Source of the DNA: Nemertoderma westbladi | Lineage: Eukaryota; Animalia; Xenacoelomorpha | Assembly: GCA_032718475.1 (NCBI GenBank) | Contig: JAUCBJ010001113.1 | Span: forward strand, 7,539-71,538 | Direction: 5' to 3' | Length of the DNA stretch: 64,000 nt | In this document: piece after piece, positions 2,308 to 55,873 of the stretch | How the letters are laid out: each line of letters opens with the position of its first letter | How positions within the stretch are numbered: the stretch's first letter is position 1 | Notes under the pieces: model-generated | Told to the model about the DNA's origin: nothing | What the model saw: the letters and a program-made list of their open reading frames with translations, nothing else | Databases searched by the model: none | Program-made: the position numbers and the translations under genes

Positions 2308-3054
2308 CTAACGAACATAATAAATATAATGAATTGTATCCTTGGCAAATTCTTTATTTATTACACTACCATATTTCACGTCATCAGGTATCGCCACGCG
2401 ACGAAGTAAAGCTAAACCAAAATCATTAATATATTCATTTTCAATTATATTAGTAGTCACGTACATGTTCGACTTAGGTTCTGGAATAGAATTGGGTGGT
2501 TGAGGACATAAAAATACCATTTGGTAAGCTTTTTCTTCATTTCCGATAATCTTTATTAAATAACCCTTTATATTATTTTTCGTCTTCAAAATAATTTTAA
2601 AATTTGGATTTAAATTCGCACCGAGATTATTTTCAGTAATTCCAAAATAATAGGCTAATTGTTGACCTATAAATAACTCTCGTACAGTTTTCCCTAAAAT
2701 AAATTGCAACCTATTTTGCTGAGTATTTTCAACTATTTGTAATTTATCTTTCAACGCCCCAGTGTTAAAATAATCTATAATGTCATTGATACTGTAGAAC
2801 AAGCCGGATGGAAGTGTATCCTCAAAATTTTTTTTCCCTTTTTTTAATAAAATAACATTCTCTACATTGTTATACATAGACGGTAACGTGGCTAAGTAAA
2901 ATATACTATTTATACCTACCACCCAGTTTTCGTTTGGATTTATAGGTAAGGCACCATGGAAATTGATCTGATAATTACTACCGGTATTACGGGGAAAATT
3001 AATTGGACAGGAGTTACTTGGTAGCCTAACATAGAAATCATCCATCACCGCCAC
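2308..3054 (-). pseudogene. Polinton minor capsid (penton-like) protein, paralog 2, C-terminally truncated
   Basis: N-terminal FYVRLPSNS..FPRNT..NY...WVVGINSI and C-terminal MYVTTNIIE.....D...ALLRRV motifs typical of Maverick/adintovirus penton. Confidence 0.7.
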
Positions 3055-3910
3055 CGCGTATTAACTTAAGTGTTATAACAGTGCGACCACCGTTGAAATT
3101 AATTAATTCACCTTGGCCGTCACGTAAAGTAATTAAGATTGTTTTTAGTTTTTTATTCAACAATGAGTAATAGCAAATGCTCTCGTATTCGTGATTAATA
3201 TATTTTCGATTTAATTGTATTAAAGGACAGGTTCTTAAGAGCGGAGCTAAAGCGTCACCAACAAAAGAGCTCTCAATAATATTTGTATATATGAAGATTG
3301 TATCTTTATTACGAGTAATATTCGTGGGATTTGGAAAATCTAAAATCCCAATTTCCGAAATTTTTGGTCCACTATAATTTAAAATTAATATCGGCTGTTC
3401 TATATTGCTTAATTCATCCACTGTAGTGGTACTGTATATATCCCAATTCGGAATACCTGGATGATTGTGATCCAATAACTGTTTTAAGCCTAGAATTTGT
3501 ATTAAATCACCGTGTAGACTTAATTGTATTTTTTTCAACTTTTTCGGAAATTTAAATTTAATTCTAGAATTATTTGTATTAAAAATAAATTCGAAATCTC
3601 TTTATTTCGCTTCAGAATTAAACAGTTTATTTATATCATCAATAATGACTTGAATAGAGCTATGCATACCAGGAAATAAACTGTATAATTTGGCATCTTT
3701 TGCATCTACCCCGATTGACAGCGAGATTTGAGTTTGCAGAGTAATATTACTGTATGTTGCTTGGTATTGAATCTCGGCAAGCCCAATTTTAGCGTTTGGA
3801 CCAATATATAATTCTTTGGCTAAATCAACAATAAACTCGCTAGGGTTATTATTGGGGTATGTGTTTAATGAGCTATCTGAAACTAGAGTGATATATGTAT
3901 CTACAGCCAT
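3038..3910 (-). pseudogene. Polinton minor capsid (penton-like) protein, paralog 1 (~290 aa, one in-frame stop at 3602-3604)
   Basis: YITLVSDSSLNTYPNNNPSEF...IGLAEIQY N-terminus and IFIYTNIIESSFVGDALAPLLR...ITLRDGQGELINFNGGRTVITLKL C-terminus. The two ORF pieces are in the same frame. Confidence 0.8.
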
Positions 3911-4172
3911 TATTATTATTCTTTAAGCTCTCTCTACATGACTCCTTTGTACATACTGTACTGTATAATGTTAAACTATAGACATCTGTGACCACGTTCA
4001 TTGCCGCTTCTACAGTATATGCGAGGGATCAATATTTTACTGGCTTTATTTAAAACGAATGGACTATAGATATTAACCTTACAGTATAGTATAGTAATAT
4101 CATTTGAGTTAATATTGATTAATTACGGTCATATGTGACCAAAATGAATTAATATACAGTATAAACCTAAAC

Positions 4173-5220
4173 TTATTGAATATGCTGTACCCACGACTGT
4201 TTCTTGGATCCAATGAATCGGACTAAATATTCTTTTTTCCCATTGCATACACGTTCTTTAAGTTTGCCAATATTTTTGTCAATCGGAAGATAAATATTAC
4301 TACTCGGGTGGACCTTTTGGAGTTCGTATGAATAAAATGAACCATTTATTATAGCACCGGTTCTGTACTTAATATCGAACATTACCGCTGGTACTCTAAC
4401 CAATCTGACCCGATGAATAATAAATAATTCACGTGTCCATTGTTCTCGATAGCCTTTAGCAAAAGCAGTACGCGCAATAGATAATCGTACTGTATCTCCA
4501 ACTTTAAATTTTATTTTCTTGTGATTAATCTGTCTATATTTCCCATATAATCTATTAATTAATTCAGTTTTATTAAATTTATTAACTTCAATGGGCGTCA
4601 TTTGTATAGTCCTATGAAATGACCTATTATAAGCAAATATAAGCTTCGGTAAAATTTTTATCCAAACATTATTTCCCCGTTGCGTGAAAATTTTGAACAT
4701 CTTTGTTTTTAATGTTCTATTGAATCTCTCGACAATAGCCGCCTTATTCACAGAGTACATTACGTAATACTGTACACCAATAGTATCTAAATATTTCCTT
4801 ACAGATTTATTTAGAAACTCGAAACCTTGATCAGTCGCGATTCTGTTTGGTTTACCCTTCTGGAATATTTTTTGCAATATACTAATAATTTCAATACCTG
4901 TTTTTGTCTTCATACCATAGGCAAAAGCAAGCCGGCTAAAGGCATCAATACATGTTAATATATAGTTATAATTATTATTTTGTGATTTATATTGCTGCAT
5001 ATCCACCAGATCTATCATATATATATCTTTTAACCCTCCCGTGAATATTTTAGATGTTGGATAATGATGTCTACGTGGTGCATGAAGGGAGTATGTCTTT
5101 TGCCCGCTCAACCATTTCTGGGCTTGAGCTGGTTTGATGTTTGCGGCTTTTGCTAATTTTGCGATACTTGCAAAACCCGCAGGCAATGAAGGATCTAAAT
5201 AAATTCTTAACAGTTTTTTG
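4173..5220 (-). CDS. Polinton retroviral-like (rve/DDE) integrase with C-terminal chromodomain-like remnant
   Basis: IDLVDM, CIDAFSR, TDQGFEF, AAIVERFNRTLK, YNRSFHRTIQMTP, FKVGDTVRLS, KGYREQWTRELF, EYLVRFIG motifs. Confidence 0.9.
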
Positions 5221-5448
5221 TCTCATCACCGTAAAAACAGCTGAAATTTTTTTATTTTCTTTGAAGTTGATGTTTTAAAGGGTTTTCTTTTTGTAGTATT
5301 TACTCTAGGTATATCTTGAGGTTTTAAATCAGTAGCTAACGGTTTACTCGATACTAAATATAGTTTTCTAAATGTTACTCCCGTTTTAACCATTATTACC
5401 GTCCGCGGATAATTTTTTTCGCAATAGCCGCTCCAGCGGCGGCGGCGA

Positions 5449-11541: not shown

Positions 11542-12250
11542 GTTTACTCTAAGCATGTAATGTGATGGGATAATATAATTGTTTTAATGTCAATAAAAAT
11601 AATAAAAACATTAAAATCTAATTTTTTATATCTCAGTCTGGTGGGCAGGGTTTAGGTTTACACCCTCAAACACACACCAACCGGTAGCTAGCCGGCTAGC
11701 TAGCTGTTGCATCTGAGTTTAACTACCGGTAGCTGACTTTACACACTGACATATAACAGTGCTAAACTGCAGAATGACTCCCCTTCTAGACTGACAAAGT
11801 ACCGCTTTAGCGTTACTAATAATAAAATCAAATAAACTCGACATGTGGTTTGCGAATGTGGCATTAGAGTGGCCCACCTAACAATAGGCCTACCGGTACT
11901 GTAGCACCCTTGTAACAGTATAGTCAGATAGGGCATGCTGGTTCCTTCGATTTAAGGATTATTACACTTGAATGCTTCCAATTTTCTGTTTACAACTTTA
12001 ATTGGTCTAATCTAGATTATTACTAGGCTACTACTGTCGCATAGGTAAGCCTATACGGCTATAGTTAACTTTATGTGGGCCTTTCTCGAATGTGGGGCCA
12101 ATTTGGTTTACAGTTAACCTTTAGAACTCACAGTCAGACGGTTGTGAATAAAACATTAGGCGCGCCTTCATTCGGTTAGGCATATAGGCCTAATGACTCC
12201 TCAACTGAAAGCCGACTAGCTCAGGGATACAATAGGTGTGGCTAGGTAGC

Positions 12251-13433
12251 TGTAAAGGCTTTTGCGGAATTAGCTAGTCATTTTCCCCACAAAGTACTCT
12301 GTAGGTGTTTTAGCGGAAATAAAAAGCCGTTTCCTTACTGTACCGGTGTTTTAGTGGACATAAAAAGCCATTTCTTCTGTATGTGTACTTTAGCGGACAT
12401 AACTGGCGATTTTGTGTCGCAGTGCGCCAGGGTGCTCTTGAATCAGTGTGGTTCCAATGACGGCATCTGTCGGCTGATGTGTCCACGTGTAACTTTTTCT
12501 TTGTTCTTTGTTCGGTTGGCCAATCAGAGCGATTTTCATTTTATTTGTACAGAAACCTCCGGGAAATCGCGCAATGTATTCTGGTCTTTGTTTACCTTTT
12601 TTCCTAAGCCTAGAACATCGGCTGTGGAATTATTCTGTGTTTCAGACTTTAGCCAAACATTAGAATGGCTTTGATTATAGAAACGTATAACTGTTATCAA
12701 CTCCACTCAGTCTGCCATACCTGGCATACCAGACTCGCCGTACCTTTCACCGCATTATTTTACTGCTATTTACTGTTGGTTATTAATTGTATCAGTTGAT
12801 GGAATATAATATTTGGAGAATATCGATAAATAATCAGAAACCCCAATCTTCTTGATATACTGAAGGTTAGAGAGACCGGTTACATATAGCAATTGCGACT
12901 TACATTAAAGTGGTTTTGGAGTGAATTTAATGCTATTTCATAGGCCCTACAGGTGTCAGTTGCTGTTCTCTTTATATGTGACTAAAATTAGTGAAGGTCG
13001 GCAGATCGGTGTGCAGCATTGTGCAGTAGTGTGCATGACTGTGACAGATAACAAAGCATCTCCTAAAGAATGCACTTTATACGTGAATCAATAGCCATCC
13101 TGTTGTGTTTAGTGTAAGTCATAACTCTGTTTACATACTTAGAGCGCCACGTCCTAAAGGAACTGTTAATATTTCCCGAAAGTGAATAATATTTGTCAGA
13201 GATTATATATTAACGATCAATCGAATAATACAGTAGGCCTACACCGCAATAAGGTCAGAGCTTCCGAATCCAGTCTCCCGGGTAAATCCAGCGGGTGAAT
13301 GGTCGCGCATAGGCTGGCTTCGGCTAATGTAGTTTAAGTGTATCAAATACTTGTCATAGGCTAAAGTCGATTTATAACCTAGAGACACCTAAATTTGGCA
13401 GGTTAAACTGCTAAAGGTCTAAAAGCGCGAACA
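12251..13433 (+). repeat. 5' LTR of BEL/Pao family A (1183 bp)
   Basis: TGTAAAGGC...GCGCGAACA; about 98% identical by eye to 27439-28626. Confidence 0.95.
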
Positions 13434-13445
13434 ATAACAGTTATA
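13434..13445 (+). promoter_or_regulatory. Non-tRNA primer-binding site ATAACAGTTATA, complementary to LTR 12686-12697 (candidate self-priming site)
   Basis: Immediately follows the LTR-terminal CA, lacks TGG, and is the exact reverse complement of TATAACTGTTAT in the LTR; covaries in the sibling (827-838 vs 1574-1585). Confidence 0.7.
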
Positions 13446-15628
13446 GCTTCTGTATTGCAACGTAGGCAATAAAGCTGAAGTACCGGTCGACTGATAACCA
13501 GTAGGCCTGACTGCCTAACCACCCGAACCGGTACTTACAGCAGTATAGGTACATCAGTATTATTCGATTTTGATAATTATATACCGGTAGGTCTTGATAT
13601 TTAATCAGGGAGGGCCCGCCCTGGTTTTTTATTGGGATTTTACTTATTTCTGTCAGTTTTATTTATATGTAAGTTAATATTGAGCAGAAGGCGTGTAAGC
13701 CTGCTCAGATTGTACAGATAATTTGTAGGCTGGACTGTTGTCTGACTGTTGTTAAGTCTGAAGAGATTGCAGTGTGTGTAGAGTGTATGTCCGATAAAGT
13801 ACTAGTTAGGAACGTGGGGGCTTCCAGTGCTGTAAGGTAAATCCCCCCCCCCCCCCCGAAAGAATAAGTCGTACTACTCGGTTAGAACGCATACTAACTA
13901 ACCATTTCGGAGTCTGCATGTGCTGTGGTTTATTTAGGCTTGATAGTACTCTGCCAGCGTTTGGTCTGTATTTTTGTTTATATGTGTTTGTGTGTATTTT
14001 TATTATTCAGAGTTTATGCGATTATTCGCAACATTCAAAACCCCAAGTTTATTCCTACAGTAATTGTGCTTGTTATACATACCGTTATAGTTAAATTAAC
14101 CCCGGTACTACATCAGGGCTGTTTGGCGTATGTAAAGACTGGTGATTTTATGCTCTAGTCATTCCAGCAGATACCGTGGTTCTTTTAGCTGTACAAGTAT
14201 TTTTAACTGCTGGTTATTTGTTGTATAAGTACTTGTACCTAATTTAGGGTTTAGTGTACAGTGCTTTCCGAAGGTAATTAGTGTGTAGGCAGTCTATTTG
14301 TGTTGTAAAGTGGTTAATAGGCACGTTGGCTCTGGTAGGCCGCGGTAATTAACTTCTAGGTAGGAACACTCCGTGTACATAACGTAGTACTTATAGCGCT
14401 ACGGCTATAAGTCGTCAGACGGTGGTATTTTTCCTATCTGGACAACGCAATATATTTACTACTGCTTTATTACTTTCAAATACCATAGTATCCTGTCCGT
14501 TGTAATAACCAGAAATTCTAACCCCTTGTTAGGCTGGTTTGTAGACTTCTTGTAAAATTAACCCTAAAAATTCGTACGTGTAATTTTTGTGTTTATTTAG
14601 AGATTGTAATCTCAACCCGTAATTGTACATAATTTGTAGTAATAAGTAACTTAGGCAAGTAGAATTATTTGTTTTAGTGTCCAAAACAATAAGTAGCACT
14701 TCACTGAGAGCGTACAGCTTCTGTGTAGTGACTCCTTCCCAGAAATAATAACATTTATTTCAAACATTGACAAAAACCCATTATACGGGTATATATATAT
14801 TATAAATCAACTCAAACCGATTTATAAAATAGTAGGCCTGTCATACAACAATTAGGTCTTAATATCAGTTGGACTACTGCTTAAATAATGGTAATAAAGT
14901 CAAGTAAAGTAACTAAGTAACCTTAAAAATTCAGAAATTCAATTATTCTAAAATAATTGACATACCGGTATTTACAATAGGCTTATTATATTTATTTCTA
15001 TAAATTTGAGCTGAAATTATATACCGGTATTCTGTAATTAATTCTAGTCTATAATTATACTTATATATACAATAAGTGTAAGCTGTATACCGGTATTCAC
15101 GATAGGCTTATTATATATTTATATATTTGCGCTGAAATTATATACCGGTATTCTGTGACAAACCTAGTCTGTAATAATACTTATATATATACTATAAGTG
15201 TATACCGGTATTCTAATATATTGTGTAAACATATCACGTTACACTGAGTAACTATATCGGTAATTAATTACTAGGCTAACAGTTGATACTGAATTACTAG
15301 ACTTGCTTTAACTGTAATATAGATATATAATATAAATATATATATATATATATACAACCATCTGTGATCCAGATAGGAGTGCTGAACGTTTGAGACCGAA
15401 GTTCAACTCACCTCCAACTGTAAGAAAGGTCATCCCTCCAGTAGTAGTATCAGACCCTAGGCTAGTCCAACACCGTAGGTCTATCATAGGCACTCGGGCT
15501 CAAGTCAAGCGGGATCAAGAAGCAGCTGTCAAACAGCAGCAACACCCTAGCCGAGAACTTATTTCTCAGCGGCCCGATAGCTCCAGTAGTTCAGATACTG
15601 TAGAGCTGACACCCGAGCGCGGAGCCAA

Positions 15629-18600
15629 GATGGCAGATGCGGTTTATTCGGATCCCCTTCTCATTCTTCCTGCAGCCGTGCTCACTAGGTTATTGATTGC
15701 GGTGGAAGAACACCAAATCGATTGGGCGAGAAGTAAGCGATCGACCAAGGATAGTTATGCGGGATCCACAAGGGAGGAACTGAAGTCTATTGTCGAGTTG
15801 CAATGGAACTTCCCCGGACCCGGACTCCCGTTTGACTTATCAGAAGCTGCCTGGGAAGACATACACAGGATGGGAGTGACAAAAGACAGAAGTGATCCAG
15901 CTGTGTGGAAGAGGTCGGCAGCAGGATATGTGCAGGGATTCTTCAGCTCTTTGGAGCGATTAGAGGAACAACTGTTTCAACAAACCCAAGGACCTCAAGA
16001 GCAGGGAGAGCTGCTTTATCAAGTTCGAGAAAGAATTCTAAGAATCAGACTAATCCTATCGGCCTTTGAGGAAGCTTCAAAAAGAAGACAAGACACGTCG
16101 TTGCAAGTTGCCGTAATGACTTGGTTCCAGCGGTGAGTCTCAAGGTTCAAGGAACGGCCCAGTGGAAATTTCAGCTGGCTGAGCGCTCCACCCATGGAGA
16201 ATCAACAGACGCTACCTTTTCTCAAGTGGAAAGCGAAGCGACACCAGAGAAACCGCAGAAGAGGGACGCTATTGACATCTATCTGTCAGACTATCAACGA
16301 TTTCTAGGTGATGAAGAGTTGAGGAGACGGCTGACTGGACTTCGCCCTAATAGTGAAGGAGCCAAGTTTGTTCTGGACGCAATAGATGTGGAAATGCTAG
16401 CTGCGAACCAAGCTAAATTTGATGAAAGCATCTGCATCGCTAAGGTTCAAGAAGAACAAGTAAAGAAAAAACGTATAGAAGACAGAAAGACAGCAGCAGC
16501 GGCAGTGGCAGCGGCAGAAGCGGAAAGAAAAGCGGCAGAAGTGGAAAGAAAAGCGGCAGAGGCAGCGGCAGAGGCAAAAGCGGCAGCTGCAGGAGTAGAA
16601 GCGGAAAGAAAAGCAGCAGCGGCAGAGGCAAAAGCAGCAGCGGCAGAGGCAAAAGCGGCAGCTGCAGCAGTAGAAGCGGAAAGAAAAGCGGCAGCGGCAG
16701 AAGCGGAAAGAAAAGCGGCCGAAGCGGAAAGAAAGATAGCAGTGGCAGAAGCAGAACGGAGGGCATCTGAAGAGACAGCCCAACTAGAGTTGGAAAATCT
16801 TCAAGAGAGGCAAGACAACTTCAATAAACAGATAACATCTAGTCAGATGCAGCTGATAAGTCGATCCACCCCCAAGCGACAGGGCTTTACATCATCGGAT
16901 GAAGGCGATACAACAGATCCTGAAGGCGGAGGAAATAGATCTCGTCTCAGCAGGCGTAGAAGAATGCCCCACCGTCAGAAATTGCCTGATTTGCCCCCAG
17001 CTGTGAGAAGGCAACTAGCTAGCACAGACTTAGGTAGTACAGAACCCACAGACCAACTTATTAGAGTAGAAAGACTCCCTACTATAGTAGATGAACCTGA
17101 AATAATTAGGCCTGTTCTCGAAGCCACCCCTTTGGTGATAGAGACACCTGTACTCCCAGAACCTACCTCTAAATTCCCTTTGCACAGCACTAAACTACCT
17201 GTGCCCAACAGAACCGCCCCTGAGACAGTTCCTGTCCTGGACTCCGAGCGAAATATCGATGATTTGTTGCCCGTTGTCCCTCGTCTACCCGCTACTATGT
17301 TGGCGGCTCCCGCTTCGGCGGTCGAATGGGTGGATGAGGGGCGGCGGGGGATGAATCTCCTGCTCGGACAGATGCTGGAGACTGTTCACCAATTCAAGGG
17401 AACAGTAAAGGAAAGTAGGTTAGAGTTGCAAGAAGTGCAGCAGAATATCGCGTTAGAACGCGATAAATTAGTAAATATACAAAAGGGTATACCACCACCC
17501 CCTGTAACAATGTGTCAACCTGTTAGGTCTGAAGTATTTCATGCGCAAGGTGTGGAGCCTACACGCATCTATACTGCTAGTGAAGTAGAAACTCCTATAG
17601 TAAACCCTATTAAGGGTAATTATAAACCTGTTGACAATGATATTCCATATAGACCTGATCATAATCCGAGAAATTTATATACCGATAACTCGATATTAAA
17701 TAACACGATGGCCCAAGAAAGTTTTACGCGTCAAATGGCTAGAACCGAAGCCCGTCAAGCGGTAAAGGTGGGAGAGATCGTCAAGTTCAATGGAGATGAG
17801 ATGAAATGGTTACCTTTTAATGAATATTACAAAGATAACATACAGAACTCTGTGCTATCTAATGGAGAGAAACTGAGATTCCTCATCGAGTGCTTGGAAG
17901 GATCTCCCAAGTTAATGGCGTTAAAGTTTATTGGACATCCAGATGGATTAAGACAAGTTTGGGATACACTAAACATCAGGTATGGTAATAGGAATAACAT
18001 AGCTAGGTATTTGTATGCAAAATTGGTAGCGCCCCGAAAGTTCATTAGCAGCGGGATTATAGAGTTTTCCGATGAGATTCAGGAGATCTGTAGACAATTA
18101 GATTGGCTAGGTAAGTCTCATGAATATCAGAGTTCTATGGTTATTGGAGCCGTGGCCTCTACTTTACCAAAGGGTGGAGTAGGTACATGCTGGGACAAGA
18201 AAGTCTTATATATGATGGAACAACAACGAAGACCATGGCTGATCTCATGTCATTCTTGGATGGAGAGGTAAAGTTACAGCTCCTAAAGCAGTCCAGAGAG
18301 AAGGCACCGGAAAATAAGGTAAGTGAAAAACCCGTTTCTAGGAGAAAGGTAACACCAGTGTGTTATACAGACGATGGCGAAAGCCAGGCTTCTCAAGAAG
18401 AGGATAGCGGGAAAGACACTGAAAGATCTTACTATGTCAACAAAGCGTCTAAAGACGTAAGTAAATTTAAGTCTCGAACCAATGACAGGAGAGAACAAGT
18501 AACAAAAACTCCTCCTACATCTCCTAATAGAGTTCACGGAAGAAAGCCCGAGGAAAGAACGAGAGTGCACAACGTTACCCAAGGTAAGGTGAGTAACATC

Positions 18601-20787
18601 AAACCAAAATGTGCGCTGTGCGACGGGCCCCACCGTTTAAGTGTGTGTGATAAATTTTTAAAGAAATCACTACAAGATAGACGTGAAGTCATGTGGGATA
18701 AGCGGTTGTGTTATAATTGCCTCAGACAAGGACACAAACGGCGAACCTGTTACTCCGATGCAAGGTGTGCAAAGTGTGGCGCGAAACATCATATCTTGTT
18801 GCACACTGAATTCGAAAGAAACAGCCCGAGTCAGGTAAGTGAGCCCGAACTACATGTCCAATTCAGTGATGTGAACGACACGGACCAAAGTTCTGAGATG
18901 GAAGGATTCTATATGGATGAATTCTCCGACGAAAACGAATCCTGTTACCTAATAAATACCGCAGTGTATCGAGCACTTATGTATGAGAAAGAAACCGATA
19001 GTGAGCTCCCCCCAACTGCTCCTGACCAACAACCATTTTGGAAAGCACCAACTTCCAATGTAGGAATCCGAGAATTTCCCGTAGTGCCGTTGAGAGTCCA
19101 CGGGCCTAAAAAGAGTTATATAGTGAACGCCCTCCTTGACTCCGGCAGCACAGCAACATTCATCAACAAAGAACAAGCCGAAGACATCTTTGCTGGACAA
19201 CCCAAGTTCCGAACTAAGTTAAACATGTCAGGAATTATGCAGGTTTGGAAATCTACAGTAATTGCAGATTGCTATGTAGGTGCGTTGTCCACCCCCCAGG
19301 ATAAACTAGGAGAACACAGTATAAGGTCAGTAAAAATGGTGGCGATAAAGAACTTCGCTACCAGCCAAGTGGAACCTTATAACTGGGATGAGGACAATTT
19401 CACCCAGCAGCTTAAGATACCTAGATTCAACACAGACTACTCTGGAGTGCAAATACTCATCGGCCAAAATGCGCATGAGGCGCTTGAGACATTGGAGAAA
19501 CGTCCTGCTCAACCGCAACCACTACAAACCTATGCGGGAAGAACTAGAGTAGGTTGGTACTTTACTGGCCCTTCCCGTAGAACTCTCATGGAAAGGTTAC
19601 CCAAAGAACGGGTCTACCAGGTAAGTGAATGGGAAACGGAGAGCAGTGAGGTAGACGACCCAACTGAGGGAACACCATACTCCTCAGATAATGACGATAT
19701 CCACCAACTCTTCGACGAGGAGAATACCATCGACCTCCTTACGGAAAACGAAACTTGGCAAAACCAAGTGAACCTATGTCAACTCATTTGTCCATCAGGA
19801 CCAGTCGACTATAACGACGAACTGAATGATGTGATAGATCGCTACAACGCGAAGACTCGGGATGAACACGCCGTACGATTCTTTACTCAAGAGGCTGTAG
19901 AGCCCAATTCCTACGATAAGGCCCTATCGGTAGAAGAAGAAAGAGCCAAGCAGATACAGGAAACAACTACACGTTTTCTTAAAGATCGAGGTAGATATGA
20001 AATTGGTCTGCCATTTCGAAAGCGAGAACCTATATTTATAAACAACCGACCCTTGGCGGAGAAAAGAATTGCGCAACTACATCGACGCCTTACGGCAAAT
20101 GCTTCAGCTAAGGAAATGTACAAAACTCAGTTGAAGAAATTTATTGACAAGGGATATGCGGAGCGAGTACCGGAAGAAACACCCATAACTGAGAGAACGT
20201 ACTATCTAACACATCATTACGTTCCCAAACCCGGTAAACCCAACGAAGTCCGGGTAGTATTTGACGACTCCGCCCTCTACATGGGCCAATCCCTCAATTC
20301 CGAGTTGTTGCCAGGACCCAACTTCCTCCAATCCTTGTTGGGAATGCTCTTAAGATTACGACAATATTCAATCACCTTTGCCTCAGATATAGAAGGCATG
20401 TTCTTACAAGTTAAGGCGCTGGATAGGGATCGAGACAGCCTACGATTTCTGTGGTGGCCTGAGGGAGACCTCAACCAGAAACCGGTGGAGTACTGGATGA
20501 CCATCCAGGCTTTTGGGATCATCTCGAGCCCTTCAAACGCCTGCTCAGTAGTGCGCACCACTGCTGATGACAACCGGGACGCCTTCTCTAAAGAGGTGAT
20601 CGACAACATCAAACGGGATATATACATGGACGACAATTTAAAGTCCCTCCCATCAGTGGAAGAAGCCATTGATGTCGCCAAAGGAACGGTAGAGTGCTTG
20701 AAAAGAAGAGAGTTTCTGGAATCGATCCCGGTAGAAGACCGAGGAGTTAAAGATCTAGACCTAATCAAAGACGATCGTTCGGACTAA
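15629..20787 (+). pseudogene. gag-pol: BEL/Pao gag-protease-RT (frameshifts near 16130 and ~18220; small deletions in RT)
   Basis: KFNGDEMKWLPF...KLRFLIECLEG (DUF1759-like); Cys/His clusters CALCDGPH, CYNCLRQGH, CAKCGAKHHILLH; protease ALLDSGST; RT SDIEGMFLQV, LRFLW, YMDD. Confidence 0.9.
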
Positions 20788-20801
20788 ACGGATTTGTTTA
20801 A

Positions 20802-21512
20802 GGGGGGGGTACACCATTTTGGTCCAAAATATGTCGAATTTTTTTTTATGGTAGATTATAATGCACCATTGAATGGTGTTTCGAAATCTGAAAACCGCTA
20901 TTTAATAGTTCTTTTACTTTTCAAGTTATGTAAATTTCCATTTAGGGAATCCTATTGAAATTACTATTACTATGTATAATGAAAGGTCGATTATCTCCAA
21001 ATATTTTTTTCATGAAATTGTCGACTTCAAAACCCTACTACTTCTACAATTTTTGAGTAATTAGTCTGAAACTTTCTGTGGGTGTCTAGATAGCCACCCT
21101 GCATAAAAGTATCAGGCAACTTTTCGAAATTTTTTGTTAATAAAATTTAATACTATTTATAAAAAACCTAAAAATTAGCATAAATTTGCAGCGCCACCTA
21201 GCGGTGCAGAATTATTTTAAAAAAATTTCGCCTGATAGTTATGTTGCCCCATCTTTGATCTATCATATAAACAAACTTTCATGTGATTAGGTTCAAAACT
21301 GTAAAAGCCTTAGGGTTTTAAGCGCAACCAAGTTTTTTTTATTGTTAACTAGTATTAACTAATATTAAATAGCGGAAAAAAAAACTTTTCTGACCTGGCA
21401 TGTAGAATAGCATCTTAGGCACCTATATGCCAAATTTTAGCCAAAACCAAACAATTTTGAAACGCTGACAGTGATAAATCGAAGAGTTGTCCGAAAATGG
21501 TGTACCCCCCCC
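20802..21512. mobile_element. Kolobok-type non-autonomous DNA transposon (MITE) inserted in BEL pol
   Basis: TIR GGGGGGGGTACACCATTTT / AAAATGGTGTACCCCCCCC; TTAA TSD at 20798-20801 and 21513-21516; removal restores TKRICLSILSTYFDPLG. Confidence 0.9.
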
Positions 21513-21516
21513 TTAA

Positions 21517-24104
21517 GTATCCTGAGCACTTATTTCGATCCATTGGGATTTATTAGCCCAGTTATATTGATTGCTCGGAGTTTAGTACAACAACTGTGGC
21601 TTGAAAACCACTCATGGGACGATCAACTTAAGGGAGAACTATTAAAGAAGTGGATGAAATAGGAAGATTCTCTACCGTCCATCGAGAACTTTATAATCTC
21701 CCGTTCATATTTTGGTCATGTTCTCCCTACTTATTCCTATCAACTCCATGTGTTTGGAGACGCCAGCGATATGGGAATAGGTATAGTAGCCTACCTGAGA
21801 GTTGAAACTCCGGATGGAATCAAGGTCGCCTTGGTTACCTCTAAGGCCTTGATAAACAACAAGTTGAAAGTTCCTCGAGCGGAGTTAAAAGCGGCTCTAT
21901 ACGCTACAGCCATCGGCCGGAATGTAACAGAACAGATCGACTATCCACTGGAGAAAACTGTCTATTGGACCGATGCGTTGCTCGTGTTGGAGTATATAAC
22001 CAATGAAGTCTGTCAGTTCAGCGTCTTTGTTACCAACAGAGTAGCCATTATACTTAGTCGCACGAAGATAGATCAATTGAGACATTGCCCCGGAACGATT
22101 AATCCACCCGACATCGCCTCCAGGGGAGCAACTCCACAAGAACTGATAGATACTCCAGACTGGTTAGGTGGACCCGACTTCCTAAGCAAAGCAGAGGATG
22201 AATGGCCTCCTCATCTTACTACGGCGGAGATTAGACAGGCCAAGGGAGCGGAGAAAGTCAAACCTAAAACTCGGGCGAGTAAATCGAAGTTATTTAAACC
22301 CGTGGTAGATCTGTCTGTACTACACACTTCCGGAGAAGACGCTTTGGATCCGAAACCCACAGCCACAAATAAGTCTGTTGTGGAAATCAGAGAGAGGGAT
22401 TGGAAATCTGGAATACCAGACGTCTCGCAAGGACTCTCACCTCTCCTGCAGAGAGCGATACATCATTATAGTTCCTGGAATCGGCTCTGTAAGGCCGTTA
22501 CATATTTAAAGCGATGTTTTCATCATCACTACTCCAGGACGAAGACCACTAGTGATACCGCTCCACTGACATCTGCGCAGGTCCATGTTGTTAAAGATCT
22601 TCCCAAATACAATATATCCGACAGGTTTCTGAAGGAGAAGATCAGTTACCAGGAGCATGAAGAAACCAATAAGCAGATACTGAGACTCCTGCAATGCTAT
22701 GAGGATTCCGATAAGTATTTCCTGTTGTTGAGAAATCCACAGATGCGCTTAAGGGATCGTTTCTCTAGCACAATGATAGATGGGTTAATACGTGTTGGAG
22801 GAAGACTAACTAATGCTCCATTATCCTTTGACACTAAGTTTCCCATACTCATTAGAAATCTTGAAATACAAATCAAGATGATTGTAGATATTCACAGTAA
22901 GCTTTATCATGCTGGTAGAGAACGAGTTCTTAGCGAAATTCGAACTCGCTATTATTTTTATAAACCCCATAGAGCTCTGAACCAAGTTCTTAGGAACTGC
23001 ATACCCTGTAGGAAAGCATTCAGTAGGCCTTTAACACAGCGAGAGGCAGAATTACCTAGGGAACGAGTAAGCTTCTATGAACCACCCTTTACTAATACCG
23101 GTGTGGATTTATTTGGCCCTATTGAAGTATATCGTGCTAGGACTATAGTCAAGAGATGGTGTGTCATCTTTGTCTGTATGACTTGTAGAGCTATCCATCT
23201 CGATATGGTGAACGATTTATCTACCAATAGCTTCATATTGAGCTTACGCCGACAGATCTCTCGCTTTGGAACTAGTAACACGATGAGATCTGATAAGGGA
23301 ACGAACTTCATTGGTGCCAACAATGAAATCAAGGCTTACATCAAAGATTGGAACCAAAGACAGGTGGACGATCAGCTAAGGGTAACAGCGTCTAGCTGGA
23401 CCTTCAACGCCGCCGACGCCCCTTGGTGGGGAGGAAGTTGGGAGAGATTAATCAGGAGCGTGAAGACAGCATTTCACTTTATAGAGCCGTGCCGCACGTA
23501 TCTCACCGACGAACTTTTGCGGACGTTAATGGAGGAAATCGCCGCCTATCTCAACGAGAGACCGCTTATGCCAGTCTCATCGAGTCCCAATTCCCTGGAA
23601 GCGCTAACACCCGCGCACTTCCTACTGAAGAAACATGTAGCCATGCTCCCACGATCGGAAATCACGGACGGAGACGAATACTGCCGGCAAACTTGGCAAC
23701 TTATGCAGTTGTTATCCCGTCGTTTCGCTGACCATTTCGAAAAACATTATCTGCCTACGCTACAACTTCGAACTAAGTGGTTTGCGCAGCAAGAAAACGT
23801 CAGCGCTGGAGACATGGTCCTTATTGTAGATTCAGATCTTCCACGTAAGCGGTGGCAGACAGGTCGTATCATCGAGACTCATATCTTGGATGATGGTTTG
23901 GTGCGATCGGTAGAACTCGTCGTCATGCGATGTAACTTTAAGAAACCGGGAATTGTCTTCGAGACACAGCAGCTCAATCGCCCAGTTGGTCGTTTATGTT
24001 TACTGGAAAGAGACAGAGAACTCTCCGGAAACTATGGAAGGCAAGATACTCTTCCCACGACCACCTCCCTAATCCAACAAACATCTAGGGACTCCCCAAC
24101 GTGA
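21517..24104 (+). pseudogene. pol: BEL/Pao pol: RNase H (Peptidase_A17-type region) and integrase; one stop near 21660
   Basis: FDPLG; FGDASD; PRAELKAA; YWTD; NPPDIASRG; H-x4-H...C-x2-C zinc domain; TGVDLFGP; SDKGTNF; PWWGGSWERLIRSVK; LTPAHFL. Confidence 0.92.
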
Positions 24105-25809
24105 CAGCGTCTGGAGTGGGGGTGTGACTATATTATTTTAAGTTTGTTTTTATTATTTTATATTTATGTATGTATTATTATGTAATTTTATTATAATCGT
24201 TTTCTTTAATTTTATTTAGTAGAATGTTATTTTAGCGATTATTTAGTAGATTAGTGCAATATATATTAGTCTTATTATTTAATTACTTATATATTATATA
24301 TTTAGTGCGACAGCGAGAAATAATTCTTTTTCTCTTTCCTTACTGTCCGTATCATATTATAAATACGTGACTACAGTAAGATGAAATATCCGTACTTATT
24401 AAAGTACAATAAAGCTCCTACTATATTTAAGTATTATTGGTAAGTAGAGTATTGGGAATGCAAAGTTCAGATCCTCGTGTCTCAACTAAACCAAGCTCTG
24501 GGTAGACCTTGGAAACGACTTGCCTCTTCTCACTGACATTGCTTCTTGCGATATTGCTCTCATACCGTATATTAAATAATACATATATAGTAGCGTGATG
24601 TCCCTTTAACAGTAGCGTACAACGCAAATAAATCTGTTAAACCCTTTGACCATCTGTAATTCTAGTTGATTAAGATATCGCGGCACCCACCGATATACTT
24701 GAAAGACAAAATTCTAGAATCAGTGGTTAACGTCCCCAGACATGTTCTGGAATAAACCGGTGCCCATCTTAAATATTAACTATTAATATTTACAAAATCT
24801 GTCAAATAGATACAATAGAGTAACTACTTACAAGTTAACTCTAAAAGTCTATAAATTAAAATCCGTAAAATTTTAGATCCTTTAAAATTCTAGTCTATTA
24901 AGATATCGTAGCACTTACCAATACTCTTAAAAGGACAAATTTCCTAGAATTCAGGATCCTAGTTCCCAGACATTCTCTGGAATAAAATTGTGTCTATTTA
25001 ATTTTAAATAATAAAATTTATGGGAATAAATTTAAATTCATATCTTTTAATGAATTTGATAAATTGTCATTTTTATACAATTTATAATATTCCCAAAATT
25101 CCATTAATTAATAGATCATGGGAGCGGAGATTCACCCTATTAAGTATATTAGTGTGCAAGAATCTCCAATATATTGTCAATAGCCGATAAAATTCATAAA
25201 ATCATGTATAAAGAGGAATATTGACAATTAAAGAATTACTATTAAATAGCATCCCAGATCTGTATGCATGAGAATTACCCTAATTCTACTGCTAGCTTTC
25301 CATAATGTCACCATGGCAACAACCACGCTAGAATTAGAAGTGAGTTAAAAGAACAATAGAAAGCTTGCCCCATTGAATAGCATAAGGAATAAATAGCACA
25401 CTGCTAGTATCCCAGGATATATAATAATAACGTGGCATTCTGGAAGGCACTTGACTAAAGGACAAATGGCCCGAATGTGTGCGGTTTGTGACAGTTGTGT
25501 GGAATTTGTGCGTTTATAGGTGAATGTTACTACTAAAGTGTGTTTACAGTAGCGAGTCGCAATTGTGAAAGTAGCCCTAACTCTGCAGTAATAACCTGAA
25601 GTAAATCTTATCCCTTGGGACGGACAGTGGAGTGACTCGCGCTGGTTGTTATTGTCGTTGTGCAGCTACTATGTTGGCGATAAGCACAGCGGCGACAGTA
25701 CATCAGCGCTGAGGATCTTGCGCTGTCCGGGGGCCGTGAGGGGTAGGCAGCGACGCCCGCTAGCCTAATTATAAACTCATTATAATATTGATAAACTCAT
25801 ATAGCAGCT

Positions 25810-27360
25810 ATGACTGAGTTGATAGAAGATAATCTTGATATCAGGGAGCGATATACTCTACATTTACAAGCGTTTGTTGATAGCTTGACATGCGGCGACG
25901 CTAGTCCAACTACTACGGAGGACGATGGTCGTTATATCGAACCGCCGATGTCCCAGTAGCAACTTACGCGTGAATTGGACTATAGAAAATTCACCGCTTG
26001 CTATATGCATCGTAATGGTACATATATGGACTTCTTAACTACTGGCCATCCTATCGATTTACACGATACGGACTATGTCGACACCGAAAGGGAAATGGTA
26101 CTATTTAAGTTTCCTACCCAGCGGAGTCGGAACGATAAACTGAAAATCGAATGCGAAAATTCTATTCGAAATCGACCCAAAAGAGAAGATGTTAAAGAAC
26201 CGGATAAACGCGGTAACTCCAACGTATATTTGGAATTCTTGAGAGAAACATTGTAAAACCAAATAAATATCACCCGCGTTTCCCCTACAAGACGTGCGTC
26301 TTTGGTATTATTGCGATGAATGCCCAAGACCCAACCAACAAACGGAAAGACATAAACATCCGCGGAGACGTTGCTTTAAACACGGTTTTACTCGCTATAT
26401 TTAAGGGAGTTTCGAGCGAAACTTGTTCGATGTATCACCTACGCTCGCTCGACTCAAACGATCCTTAAATAAACCTATGATCAGAGTTCCGGAATACTCG
26501 GTCGGACCTCCTCATTCCCTAGTTAGACCTCAGACTCTTGATCCTAATAGTATCATGGATACTCCCGAACTGTACTCACGGTTCAAAGATCTAGTGTTAC
26601 CCGAACAGTTAGTCGGTGGCACTCCGGTTGTGGGCTCCCTAGATATTCGCCCATCTTACCTTGCCGGATTGGGACGCGGACATCTAATATCGCCATTCAA
26701 CCGCATCATCGTCCCAGTTTAACCCGATACAACCTGTCACCGAGGTGGAGGAGAGAGTTGTACGAAACGCGTTGGACACTATTCGTCAAAAGATCGGAAA
26801 AGGAACCTACAATTGTTTAGAGATACGTAAATTGCAGCAACTAGTCCAAGCGGTAAACGAATTAGCTTTATCTCAGTTTGATCAGGAAATCCAGAATCTA
26901 TAAGAAGATATCGAACTTGGACGACTCTACTTTCTGCAAGAGTTTGGACAAATGTTTTCAACGACAAGCGGAGGAAAATCAGCTCGAGGAGAAGCATATC
27001 GATTCCGATAGAGCCCGAGAACGCGAGTTGGAAAGAATCATCAAACCGAGGAAATTTCTCACTATACACGGTCCACCTACCGCTCTCGTGCAAATGACCC
27101 GTCAGGGACCAGTAAGAGCTGCTGTCTCAAAACGCGCTCTCAAGGTTGTTCGACCTCGTTCCACTGAGGTTGATACCGATCAACCAGGTACCTCGACCGG
27201 CGGATACACCGACCGTAACCCTAAACCTTCTGATGCAATTGTATTGCACCCTTCACCCAAGGGTTATAGCCCTCCTAGTAAAGTGGCTCACCCCAAAGAG
27301 AAAAGGACTCTTGCTAGCCTCAAAAAACTGCGTAAATGCCGTCCTCGCAAGAAAGACTAA
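25810..27360 (+). pseudogene. Degraded additional sense-strand ORF (ORF3) of family A between pol and the 3' LTR; product unknown
   Basis: ATG at 25810 followed by consecutive ORF pieces 25975-26256, 26423-26722 and 26878-27360, with coding-like composition unlike the AT-rich flanks. Confidence 0.55.
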
Positions 27361-27438
27361 CTGTTTAGAGTATTTTTATATTTTAGAAACTGTGATTTTT
27401 TATATTTTATAGAATTAAATCCCATTTTCTGGGAGCAG

Positions 27439-28626
27439 TGTAAAGGCTTTTGCGGAATTAGCTAGTCATTTTCCCCGCAAAGTACTCTGTAGGTGTTTTA
27501 GCGGACATAAAAAGCCGTTTCCTTACTGTACCGGTGTTTTAGTGGACATAAAAAGCCATTTCTTCTGTATGTGTACTTTAGCGGGCATAACTGGCGATTT
27601 TGTGTCGCAGTGCGCCAGGGTGCTCTTGATGCAGTGTGGTTCCGATGACGGCATCTGTCGGCTGATGTGTCCACGTGTAACTTTTTCTTTGTTCTTTGTT
27701 CGGTTGGCCAATCAGAGCGATTTTCATTTTATTTGTACAGAAACCTCCGGGAAATCGCGCAATGCATTCTGGACTTTGTTTACCTTTTTTCCTAAGCCTA
27801 GAACATCGGCTGTGGAATTATTCTGTGTTTCAGACTTTAGCCAAACATTAGAACGGCTTTGATTATAGAAACATATAACTGTTATCAACTCCTCTCAGTC
27901 TGCCATACCTGGCATACCAGACTCGCCGTACCTTTCACCGCATTATTTTACTGCTATTTACTGTCGGTTATTAATTGTATCAGTTGATGGAATATTGTTA
28001 TATTTGGAGAATATGGATAAATAATCAGAAAACCCCAATCTTCTTGATATACTGAAGGTTAGAGAGACCGGTTACATATAGCAATTGCAACTTACATTAA
28101 AGTGGTTTTGGAGTGAATTTAATGCTATTTCATAGGCCCTACAGGTGTCAGTTGTTGTTCTCTTTATATGTGACTAAAATTAGTGAAGGTCGGCAGATCG
28201 GTGTGCAGCATTGTGCAGTAGTGTGCATGACTGTGACAGATAACAAAACATCTCCTAAAGAATGCACTTTATACGTGAATCAATAGCCATCCTGTTGTGT
28301 TTAGTGTAAGTCATAACTCTGTTTACATACTTAGAGCGAAACGTCCTAAAGGAACTGTTAATATTTCCCGAAAGTGAATAATATTTGTCAGAGATTATAT
28401 ATTAACGATCAATCGAATAATACAGTAGGCCTACACCGCAATAAGGTCAGAGCTTCCGAATCCAGTCTCCCGGGTAAATCCAGCGGGTGAATGGTCGCGC
28501 ATAGGCTGGCTTCGGCTAATGTAGTTTATGTGTATCAAATACTTGTCATAGGCTAAAGTCGATTTATAACCTAGAAGACACCTAAATTTGGCAGGTTAAA
28601 CTGCTAAAGGTCTAAAAGCGCGAACA
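27439..28626 (+). repeat. 3' LTR of BEL/Pao family A (1188 bp)
   Basis: Direct repeat of 12251-13433, followed by TSD GTAGC. Confidence 0.95.
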
Positions 28627-29022
28627 GTAGCACTATAAAATCCCCTCGCACTCTCTGTTACTAATTTTCAACAGTTCAACATTCACTCTATGTTGTATGG
28701 TTTATAGTTAACCTTTAGAACTCACAGTCAGGCGCGCCTTCATTCAACCAGTCATATAAAGGCTCTACATGGATACAATAGGTGTGGCTAGCAGTATAAC
28801 TATATAAAGTCCACCGCATTCTCTGTTACTAACATTCAACAGTTTAACATTCACTCTATGTTGATGGGCCTATATAAAACATAGTTAGTTTATTTATGTG
28901 TTCGCTTTTTTAAATTAAATTACATATAAAATAGACAAACAGACTGATAACATTTAATACCGGTAACATTTAGGCCTACTTTATAAATGAGTGTACTAGT
29001 TAGGTACTAGTTAGATATGCTT

Positions 29023-30640: not shown

Positions 30641-31868
30641 TTTTTAATTTTAATTTCCACCACCACCAAAATTAAATTTAGTAAGAATTTTTACATCCCT
30701 CCACCAAACACAAGTCTAAAACTTGGATTCAGTACCGGTCTTGGAGGTTGAAATATTTTACCTGACAATTGATTTTTTAATTCTTTTAAATTAAGTCCAT
30801 AAATGATCTGCTTACAACTTATATTTTTATTTACTATTTGATAATTCATCATCAACATCATCACCTTTTGGTTCTTCATAAATTTGTATATTTGATATTT
30901 TTATAGATTTTTTGAGGTTTGTTTTATAGTGCCCCCAAGGAAGTGATTGATTTTAATGATGTAATTTAGATTGAAATCTGTGTATGTTTTTTTTTTATTT
31001 CTTCATTTGAGTTATATGCTTTTAAATATTCTTCATGAGTAATATTCGTTTCCACAACAGCTCTTGTAATACCTTTTGCTCTGCGAATATTTCTGTTATT
31101 CCATTCCAAAATTGAATATAATTTTGGTCTTAAAAATACTGCTTGTTTAATTTCACGTGAGGCTAGTTCATCTTTACAATAATAAAGTCTCGATTTATTT
31201 TTATTACTATAAAGCGGGTGATCCGGAGGGTAATTGGATGTATCTAAAATATTATTTTTAGTTAATGCTTTTAAAAAATTACTCTGCGATGTATTATAAT
31301 AACAACCTATTAAAGAGTCTGTATCTGATGCAACAATTTCAATATGACAGTTTAATTCTTTCTCAATAGGCAGTAATCTATTGTAATACAGTTCATACAT
31401 ATCAAGTTTAGCCAAATCCAACACCACGCTACCAATAAATATAGGCTTATCGAGAGTTACTGAGTCTTTCACTAATAAATGACCCAATAATGTATTATTG
31501 TATATTATAAATTGTTCATGATTAATACGTTTCACCAATTGGTCACATTTATCATTGTTATTTGTGATGCGAAAGTTACATCGTTCCCGTATCTTTTCTA
31601 TTGTCTTACCAAATAAAGAGTTATTAAGCAGCTTTGCGACAGCCATTTCAATGTAATTTTTTGCTAGTCGTCTTTGATTAATATTAAAATCTATGTAATT
31701 TTTAAATACAAATTCTTGTTGAAAAGAATATAATTTATGTAGTTTAGTAACAAATAATCCTTGTTTTATATAAAATTTTAACAGTTTCTAATGTAAATGT
31801 TAAAATTCTTTATCAAATTGCGTCAGCACGAGTTTTGGAGTAGATATCTTATATTTACCGGAGGTGCC

Positions 31869-34800
31869 TGAAATAATGACTATTAATTTATCACTCCTGA
31901 CTGTCCGACATATATTCAATCAGATATATTTTAGATAACACAATTACACCGGTAGGCATGATATACCGGTTACAGAGTACTACAGTACTGCAGTACCACG
32001 GTACAGCAGTAGACTTTTCTGCACTTACGGTCCGGACAGATTACCATTAGAAACCGTCATTACTTACTCTCTTACTTCAAGGCCTCTTAGGTCCAAGGGT
32101 GATCTTAACAATCTCCCCCTTTCTGTATTAATTAAGAAGACAATGAGTTAGTAATATATACTTGAGTTATAAATTAAGTAAGGATTATATAGTTTTAAAC
32201 TGAAAGTTAATTTAAGTTTCCAGTTGTATATTAATACTGTGAGTCAGGTCAGTTTAGTTTAAATAGTTTATTCTGTATTTCCACAATCAATCATCTTCAA
32301 TAGTTTCGTCCGATCTGCCTTACGTTTGGTAAGACAGTCCGCAAGTTGCTCAGCTGTACAGACCCACTGCACTTCAACTTCTCTACGATCAACCATTTGT
32401 CTCATAATTGCCATATCGATGCGAAGTCGCTTGTCCTCAATTGTGTTACTTGTATGAACAGCTTGGGCTAAGGATCGATTATCAGTGAAACATACAATGG
32501 GTAACTTAATATCTTTCAGGAACTGAAGCACCTTCTTCAAAAATATTGCTGCTTCTACGCCCTCTATCAATGCTAAAGTTTCAGCAGCTAAAGTTGACTT
32601 CACAACCCTCTTGAGCTTCTTTGACTGCCATGACAGGGTAGCATGCTTCTTATTGACATCTGTAAGAAATATAATATAGCCACCCTGTGACCCACCATCT
32701 CTAAGATTTCCAAATGAAGCATCTGCATAGACCTCCAACTGGCAGGTATCAACATCAAGACCATTCAAATTACAACGCAATCCACAGTGTTGTAACTTCA
32801 ACTTTCTAATTATTTTATTAACATTTCGCAAGTCTTCTACAGTTGGATGCTTAGTATGAGTACTAAGTTCACAGGAATCATAAGCAATGTCTGGTCTTGT
32901 TTGATTGGCTACCCAATTGATAGCACCAATCAAGGATCTAAATTTTGTAATCTCTCCCTTTTTTAGTGGTCTTTCCTTTGCTCCTTGTGGAATATAAATC
33001 TCATCTAGCTCCTTAATGTATTTCTCTTGCTGCAGATATATGCCATATGAAGACTGTTCAAGGAATAATACCAAGTAACGAAAACTTCCTTTACAAATAG
33101 GACCAACTGCAAATGTCTCAATAAATGACTTAATTATTTCTTCTTCAAATTGAGCTGTACCTGCAAACAAAACATCATCAACATGAATGCAGATAACACC
33201 ACCAATTGAACTGTTTGGCTGTATCCATTTGAAAAGACCAGGATCCAGCTCACATATGTTTACTCCCAATTCTTCCAGTCGACTCTTTACTCTAATATAC
33301 CATGATCTAGGTGCATCATTAAGACCATAGACTGTTTTTAACAATCTCCACAACTGTCCATCACTATCTGCTTCTGGTGGTGGGTTGACAAAAACTTCAC
33401 GGCTAATATTCTCTCCCTGTAGGAATGCTGACTTAACATCTATGGATTTAATACTCCAACTCATCATAGAAGCCAGAGATAATGCTAGACGAATGCTGTC
33501 TTTTGAGCAAGTTGGTGAGTCAGTTCTTTCTTCAACTATCTCTTCAAATCCGCGAGCTACTAATCGCGCCTTTATGTTTCCATTTTCCTTCTCAGTCAAA
33601 ACCCATTTGAGAGATATAAAATCTTGACTCTGATTATCGACTTCAACATATACATTATTTATACGCCACATGTTTAATTCATGTCTCTTGGCTTCTGCAA
33701 CTTTCTCCACTTTATCTAAAGTGATATATGTTGGAATTGTTAAGTTAATTCCCTCCTCCTTATCTAAGACCCGATAATCATAGACATTATTTAAATCCAT
33801 CCATTTAGATGGCCCATCGGAATATTCAAGATTAAAACAATGTTTATATTTTCCGGTCGCCTTACCAGCACGACTTATTACTGTGGCTGTTACTAATTCT
33901 TCATTTTCCTTTTCTCTAAACTGCACTCGATCGCCTGCTAGATGATTAACAAAGAGTTTAACATTTGCCACCTCATTGGTTTGTATAATAGGTTTATTTC
34001 TCACATCAGCAACTTCTGAAGTATGTTCTTTACCCCCATTGGACATTATTTCAACTGAGTTTGGTTCATCCTCACCTATCAGATTATCAACTAAAGGACC
34101 AGTCTTGGAATTATCAACAGAACAGTGTAAAGAACCATTGTTGTTATCCGCAATTCTAGCTGAACGTATTCGTGATGGGTGAACACGAACATATGTGCTA
34201 CCATGTTTTACCAATATTTGTTGACCATCCTGTCCAATGACAGAACCAGGGCCACGCCACTCTGGAAATTCTATTCGTTTATAATACACCAATTCACCAC
34301 TGGTAACCTTATCCCCACTATCTCTTACATTGTGTTTTAGAGCACGGCGTAACCGTTCTGATGATTCATTTTTAATGAATTCCTGACGAGCAGCATGCAT
34401 GGCATTAAGATTGTCTGCAACTACAGTGCTTGTGATGTTACCTTCCAAGGCGGGTAGTTTATTATCCTCTACTGTGGGACGCATTGGATTTTTTCCAAAA
34501 ACTAATTGATTGGGTGAAAACCCATGAACATTAGTTAATGCATTGCGAGCAGCAACTGCCCATGCCACTGCCACATCAATTTCACATTTTTCTTGAGCCA
34601 TTATCTTTTGAACATCTAAGCCAAGAACTGCGTTCTGCCGTTCACACAGACCATTGGACCATGGTGATTCAGCAGCAGTAGGTAGAACTCTTATGTTAAA
34701 ATTTTCAGCAAGATTAATAAATTGCGCATTGTTAAATTCACCTCCATTATCTACAAGAAATTTCCGAGGATGGCCAAATGTAATTATTCACGATTTAAAA

Positions 34801-55562: not shown

Positions 55563-55873
55563 CCATATCTACCAGAACAAAGTGGTACAAAACGGTTCGG
55601 AGTCTCTAAAGAGGAGATTACGTATTGATAACCGAACTGATTGTCAAGAGAAAGTATTGGGAGACGGGAGTGATCTTGCATATACACCCAGACATGCAAA
55701 ACATAGTGTGCACAGTCACTGTGAAAATTAGGGGCAAGTGTCCGCACCCAAAGAAGTGTAAAACTAATGGTTTACACACCTTGGACCGACCGGTCCAAGA
55801 TATCGTGTTATTAGAGGAGACACGCATCGAGACTGGAGATTATAATTTGTCTCCTGCCTCAAAACAGAATTAG
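55563..55873 (+). pseudogene. Integrase C-terminal remnant of family C
   Basis: RTKW...KYWETGVI..IHPD...V.TVTVK...RPVQDIVLLE matches the pol C-terminus of family A. Confidence 0.75.

Follow-up and report, generated by a model that had tools for sequence, protein, structure and literature searches.

How an LTR retrotransposon that lacks a tRNA-type primer-binding site (PBS) begins its minus-strand DNA is the question raised by a BEL/Pao element of Nemertoderma westbladi (contig JAUCBJ010001113.1). The stretch of DNA analysed here, referred to as the window, is 64,000 nucleotides long, and the element occupies positions 12251-28626 (16,376 bp) on its forward strand. In the ICTV description of the Belpaoviridae, members have an 18-nt PBS for tRNA-Arg or tRNA-Gly and a length of 4.2-10 kb, and BEL/Pao replication is called poorly understood and taken as tRNA-primed (PMC8742986). 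The element is framed by the 5-bp target-site duplication GTAGC (12246-12250 and 28627-28631). Blastn and the sequence itself delimit a 5' LTR of 1,183 bp (12251-13433) with TG...CA ends and a 3' LTR of 1,188 bp (27439-28626); these sizes, the ends and the duplication all fit BEL/Pao. The two LTRs are 97.7% identical by blastn, suggesting a fairly young insertion.

The 12 bases directly after the 5' LTR (13434-13445) form a PBS without TGG. Their exact reverse complement lies in the LTR itself at 12686-12697 (LTR position 436-447), about 740 bases away, and this candidate self-primer is repeated in the 3' LTR at 27874-27885. No further occurrence of either 12-mer was found in the window. A diverged sibling family is present on the minus strand, with a 5' LTR at 839-2027 that is 75% identical to the main LTR (blastn) and a PBS at 827-838 that is complementary to a 12-mer at 1574-1585; this pair falls in the same alignment columns as the main one. 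Across the two sequences on which the covariation is based, main element and sibling, the 12-mers differ at two positions, and both differences are double changes, A-U to U-A (12690:13441) and U-A to C-G (12692:13439), that leave 12/12 pairing intact. In both families the primer helix adjoins the LTR end exactly (offset 0). A TGG-type PBS is absent, the first TGG being 188 bases past the LTR in the main element and 273 bases past it in the sibling. The preliminary description had reported the missing tRNA-type site, the compensatory covariation and the exact abutment, and these stand, as do its coordinates and sequences for the LTR ends, the target-site duplication, the 12-mers and the sibling pair. 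One survey defines a self-primer by at least 10 bases of complementarity beginning 0-5 bases after the LTR (PMC6317226); both families here lie within these limits, their self-match being 12 bases long at offset 0.

The 12-mer/PBS pairing is a real, non-random feature. In dinucleotide-shuffled LTRs, a match of at least 12 bases at the LTR end arose in 5/20,000 cases for the main element and 4/20,000 for the sibling, rising to 13/20,000 and 8/20,000 when offsets of 0-5 were allowed. Of the 1,886 12-mers in the 5' leader, three find their reverse complement in the LTR, namely the PBS and two overlapping ones at 13557-13558. Cognate 12-mer duplexes have energies of -11.4 and -13.3 kcal/mol, compared with -6.4 and -2.8 kcal/mol when the partners are swapped between families. 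Among the 40 of 378 differences listed for contigs aligned on the LTR, in which PBS and LTR alleles are not linkable, none changes either 12-mer, which carries no weight for or against the pairing. Two further pairings were discarded: another inverted repeat within the LTR (12645:13359, 10 bases) is no more than chance would give, and the primer helix could be continued upstream of 12686 in the main element but not in the sibling.

The surroundings of the PBS were modelled by folding the region 13200-13500 of each family on its own. Two duplexes are predicted in both families, with probabilities mostly of 0.8-1.0. In duplex A, bases 13303-13314 pair with 13417-13430, which end three bases before the LTR end (one double and two one-sided changes between families). 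In duplex B, bases 13237-13261 of U5 pair with 13446-13467 of the leader (one double change, 13239:13465). Also predicted are a hairpin between duplexes B and A at 13270-13302, present in both families with one double change (13270:13302), and a U5 terminal hairpin at 13394-13415 with two one-sided changes that keep the pairing. Between the two duplexes, the final three bases of the LTR and the PBS are predicted to be single-stranded; the mean unpaired probability of the PBS is 0.76 in the main element and 0.67 in the sibling, whereas it is 0.25 in a tRNA-primed copia element of the window. Folding of U5 into duplexes A and B is thus predicted to leave the PBS open for the 12-mer.

The fold model comprises 49 pairs in seven helices. 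Nine pairs differ between the families and 9/9 stay paired, four of them via a double change. When the same number of substitutions was scattered at random, all pairs were kept in 3,438/200,000 trials for the central helix and in 32/200,000 for the flanking helices, the latter figure being optimistic because the flanking helices were picked from folds of the same two sequences. Three pairs (13252-13254), whose probabilities are only 0.01-0.27, were aligned by hand, and forcing the PBS to be unpaired lowers the sibling duplex B to about 0.4. The central helix has a probability of about 0.2 in the main element when the fold is begun at 12686 and of 0.94 when it is begun at 12676; in the sibling it is about 1.0. 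Pairing of the 12-mer at the PBS would make a pseudoknot, a structure that the folding program is unable to represent alongside duplex B. Taken together, the computations on these two sequences predict a Tf1-type three-duplex 'pretzel' around the PBS in both families, and 10.1101/2022.12.06.519325 describes the same three-duplex arrangement as required in Tf1. In both families the leader has an AATAAA just past duplex B (13469-13474), and an Rfam search over 12200-15400 gave no match at E up to 1.

Relatives from other animals were sought in metagenome contigs, where 214 BEL/Pao loci were confirmed and 80 of them retrieved by an RT alignment. An LTR-like direct repeat was found in 29 of the 80: 15 had a defined 5' LTR end, nine had a start only and five were left out. 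Scanning resolved six of the nine start-only loci; L023, L025 and L072 did not resolve. LTR starts were placed by hand, L019, with a start that is off by ten bases, duplicates L018, and clustering by RT gave 12 families with a readable PBS. The PBS lacks TGG in ten of these families, while L013 and L040 have a TGG-type PBS and no self-match. The ten TGG-less families contain no contiguous self-match above 7 bases. In seven families (L002, L006, L017, L037, L038, L057 and L064), 11-13 bases of the PBS can pair with a predicted exon-exon junction in the family's own LTR, a strict junction being defined as a GTAAG donor plus a pyrimidine-rich AG acceptor inside the LTR. L018 has an 11-base junction match in which the donor is good and the acceptor weaker, and L054 (11 bases) and L052 (10 bases) match only with non-consensus donors. 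As a cross-family control, the PBSs of other families reach at most 7 bases (loci with a defined end, L064 excluded). With shuffled PBSs and a relaxed filter, the true score was reached in 0/30 shuffles in eight families and in 1/30 in L006 and L052. The primers of these relatives are predicted from sequence to be built at splice junctions. A splice-built primer was also tried for the main element, where no strict junction was better than the contiguous 12-mer (0 and 7 bases).

The relatives also bear on where a primer lies in the RNA and on how general the fold is. The donor of L017 is preceded at 36 bases by a TATA word, a spacing that fits a primer located at the cap. The corresponding distance from the TATA-like word is about 125-140 bases in L037, L038 and L057, which suggests that their primers may lie within the RNA leader. 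Among seven TGG-less families folded, many leader-to-U5 pairs were found only in L015 and L064, so the pretzel is no general feature of the relatives. On the RT tree (midpoint root; L064 unlabelled), the TGG-less label needs two changes, and the two tRNA families fall among the TGG-less ones. The LTR-end pattern had no match in the metagenome contigs, and no relative was found in the viral contigs scanned.

With no tRNA site, an exact LTR pairing kept by matched changes, and a PBS predicted to lie open between helices, the main BEL/Pao family likely primes its minus-strand DNA with its own LTR-encoded 12-base RNA segment rather than with a tRNA; we put the probability at about 0.7. The self-priming reading of the preliminary description thereby gains support from the predicted Tf1-like fold and from the self-complementary, TGG-less PBSs of other BEL/Pao families. 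Modelled on Tf1, the RNA would start at or upstream of 12686, and U5 and the leader would fold into duplexes A and B and expose the PBS. The LTR 12-mer would then pair with the PBS as a pseudoknot, as in the Tf1 'pretzel', and the element's RNase H would cut the RNA just after 12697. RT would extend the freed 3' end over U5 and R, and the strong-stop DNA would jump to the 3' R, which retains the 12-mer for the next round. If plus-strand synthesis copied the primer, it would write an LTR change into the PBS and so produce matched changes directly. Cleavage and priming are proven for Tf1, according to a review; for the main element, we infer RNase H cleavage and primer use by the 12-mer from this analogy. 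With its gag-pol broken, the copy in the window would need enzymes from other family members.

Where transcription begins is less sharply defined. A TATA-like word (12676) and a TCAGT (12707) flank the 12-mer within 12676-12711. At its spacing of 10 bases ahead of the 12-mer, the TATA-like word would set a start about 20 bases past the 12-mer. No canonical TATA was found 30 bases upstream of the 12-mer in the main LTR and no canonical AATAAA in the LTR downstream of it, and a CCAAT word is present in both families, 166 and 153 bases before the 12-mer. The preliminary description had predicted a start at about 12686, which is probably too narrow, as no promoter word fixes that position. It had also cautioned that the TATA/TCAGT pair might place the start downstream; the pair is real in the main copy, but in the sibling TCAGT is absent from the corresponding place and the TATA-like word, while sharing the ATTATA core, has two mismatches. 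A splice-donor-like word (12866) and an acceptor-like word (13193-13200) downstream of the 12-mer are conserved in both families, and an intron between them, if present, would shorten the distance from primer to PBS.

The best-surviving alternative, though an unlikely one, follows from these promoter words. Transcription would start just past the 12-mer, so that the RNA would hold it only in the U3 copy near its 3' end; a primer excised there would serve the PBS of its own or a partner RNA. Besides the TATA-like word at -10 and TCAGT at +21 in the main element, with the ATTATA core also in the sibling, the poor conservation of the stretch directly after the 12-mer (37/73 identical) would suit this explanation. 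The sibling's two mismatches and missing TCAGT weaken it, and a cut in the 3' U3 would presumably deprive the RNA of the 3' R on which strand transfer depends. In addition, the primer of the relatives would form only at a splice junction, which places it inside the transcribed region.

By ORFs and Pfam, the main element's gag-pol spans 15336-24104 in four main frame pieces (15336-16133, 16070-18268, 18124-20784 and 21663-24101), with domains above the Pfam cut-offs (DUF1759, 1.6e-11; Peptidase_A17, 5.6e-15; DUF5641, 2.4e-19; Integrase_H2C2, 6.2e-07) and no Pfam chromodomain hit in pol. The RT piece is 35% identical to a Pao polyprotein. The RNase H-integrase piece has 67 homologues of the Pao type at 22-37% identity, nearly all with PF05380 and/or PF18701. 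These homologues and the Pao-specific domains bear out the BEL/Pao placement of the preliminary description. In an RT tree of 49 rows drawn without named references or outgroup, the main element forms a long branch of uncertain position that groups with the window's second BEL/Pao element. As in Belpaoviridae (Semotivirus), gag with DUF1759, protease, RT, RNase H (Peptidase_A17) and integrase with DUF5641 follow in order, the TG...CA LTRs are within 0.2-1.2 kb and an extra 3' ORF is present as in some members; unlike the ICTV description, the element has no tRNA-type PBS and measures 16.4 kb. The RT is split by about 750 non-homologous bases near 20763-21513 and, with gag-pol in several frames, this indicates a defective copy. 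Contig depth over the 750-base insert is like that of its flanks, which suggests that the insert is itself repeated or common to a subfamily. In all four runs, contigs connect 22258 with 23973 or 23975, which points to a derivative without most of the integrase region.

Slightly less probable than a late start is that the self-priming LTRs are not native to this gag-pol, the cassette having been captured by, or nested in, an element of another group. The possibility was considered because the long 5' leader (13468-15335, with tandem repeats and common to the sibling up to about 13979) ends in a (TA)n run directly before gag, and because the pol stop is followed by a purine-rich, PPT-like word (24114-24125) and an AT-rich tract. 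The sibling's pol lies outside the window, no contig of the four runs spans the element's junctions, including leader-gag, and in run X5 the summed depth is uneven (121-21,480), the 3' part being several- to many-fold deeper than gag-pol. Against capture, contigs cover 30/30 bins from the leader to the extra ORF in 4/4 runs, and leader, gag-pol, spacer and extra ORF have comparable summed depths, which are not copy numbers, in X1 (162,000-1,485,000, within about 9-fold) and X3 (62,000-760,000, within about 12-fold). Pol, spacer and extra ORF follow the same layout in the window's second BEL/Pao element, which also has a similar PPT-like word after pol, and self-complementary PBSs occur in other BEL/Pao families. 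The extra ORF of the main element, ahead of the PPT, is degraded (25800-27360), with no Pfam match for the 164-aa piece scanned. An inner BEL element with LTRs of its own was also sought; no inner repeat pair was found and this reading was lowered. The main element is likely a native 16-kb high-copy family.

A little further down in probability, and on a par with each other, are two explanations that accept the helix or the PBS as functional and assign the priming elsewhere. In one, priming is done by a host tRNA fragment or another small RNA, and the LTR copy would be either a relic or a decoy that competes with it. Half-tRNA primers are known in copia lineages (PMC6317226). This improbable explanation would need two RNAs that differ at two internal positions, each difference being matched by a change in the LTR, and no TGG-type site follows the LTR. 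The window's own copia element, which serves as a tRNA-primed control, has an ordinary TGG-type PBS and a self-match of 5 bases. ARAGORN found no tRNA gene within the 64-kb window. The copia element (31869-36926, minus strand) has 242-bp LTRs that are 99.6% identical and a GalEa-type TGG PBS, the type described for metazoan GalEa elements.

In the other, equally improbable explanation, the long-range helix is real but acts in packaging, dimerisation or splicing or as a translation switch, and the route of priming is not visible here. The R-U5 region is indeed long and conserved (277/333 identical in the last third) with several conserved helices, and the splice-donor-like word near LTR position 616/628 is shared by both families. 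Yet in both families the helix stops right at the LTR boundary, the point at which minus-strand synthesis has to begin; an alternative primer site is absent, and the same position is self-complementary in at least seven other families. Chance complementarity in an AT-rich repeat, which could appeal to one other inverted match of 12-13 bases between leader and LTR (at 13557), is dismissed on the shuffles, the double changes at both differences and the zero offset.

Self-priming by the 12-mer has its closest counterparts in Tf1/Tf2/Tj1/Tosmo, Tf1/sushi and Tcn1, Ty3/gypsy chromoviruses that likewise have no tRNA PBS and a PBS complementary to 11-12 bases of their own 5' LTR. In Tf1, the PBS also has a duplex on either side, formed with LTR sequence that lies downstream of the primer, as predicted here. 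The Tf1 primer consists of the first bases of the transcript, whereas we infer only a position within the RNA for that of the main element. Unlike in Tf1/sushi, the LTR is 1.18 kb long, with a correspondingly remote primer, and pol is of the BEL/Pao type and not that of a chromovirus. The element would thus work like Tf1 without being a member of Tf1/sushi.

Outside Ty3/gypsy, self-priming has been predicted from LTR/PBS complementarity for the plant Ty1/copia TAR lineage (Houba, Osr-1); that case is a prediction only and differs from ours in superfamily and domain order. The survey cited above names Tf1/sushi, Tcn1 and the copia TAR lineage as those for which self-priming is reported or predicted (PMC6317226). 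The fungal GalEa copia elements resemble the main element in that a non-tRNA, covarying structure replaces the PBS; their partner is a hairpin formed locally, with no complement in the LTR according to the authors, whereas here the partner is in the LTR. No BEL/Pao self-priming was found in the literature covered (including PMC8742986, PMC6317226, PMC3118150, PMC4600332, 10.1101/2022.12.06.519325, PMC7175516, PMC3601003, PMC5443660, PMC5445492, PMC2864245 and PMC3286476); subscription papers, Repbase reports and supplements were outside the search, so a prior mention is possible.

Beyond the 12-mer pairing, the present analysis adds the predicted pretzel fold in both families and the TGG-less, self-complementary PBSs of BEL/Pao relatives. 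We give even odds to the broader proposal that self-priming is a widespread and undescribed mode of BEL/Pao replication. It would come in two forms, with a splice-built primer in most of the relatives sampled and a ready-made primer in a full Tf1-type pretzel in the main family, and the primer may lie within the RNA leader and not at the cap. Lineages would have switched between tRNA priming and self-priming, and the same RNA architecture would have arisen or persisted in a third LTR superfamily. If self-priming is true, a high-copy animal family and many of its relatives replicate without a host tRNA, and RNase H-based self-priming extends beyond Tf1/sushi and the predicted plant TAR group. 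Such elements might then be free from tRNA supply and from interference by tRNA fragments at the PBS, and 'missing PBS' calls in annotation would be explained.

Other mobile sequences accompany the main element in the window. The second BEL/Pao element (48045-61100) is 5'-truncated, carries a LINE fragment in pol and has a 3' LTR from near 60289, in which no self-match above 9 bases was found. Its extra ORF is open over 960 aa (56901-59780), with Cys/His-rich motifs and no Pfam match. A second fragment of the main element's gag, 92% identical and without the leader, lies at 61598-63590. ORFs at 2311-5222 and 30969-31787 on the minus strand, among them an integrase by Pfam (rve) and a polymerase-like piece recognised by eye, resemble Polinton/Maverick fragments.
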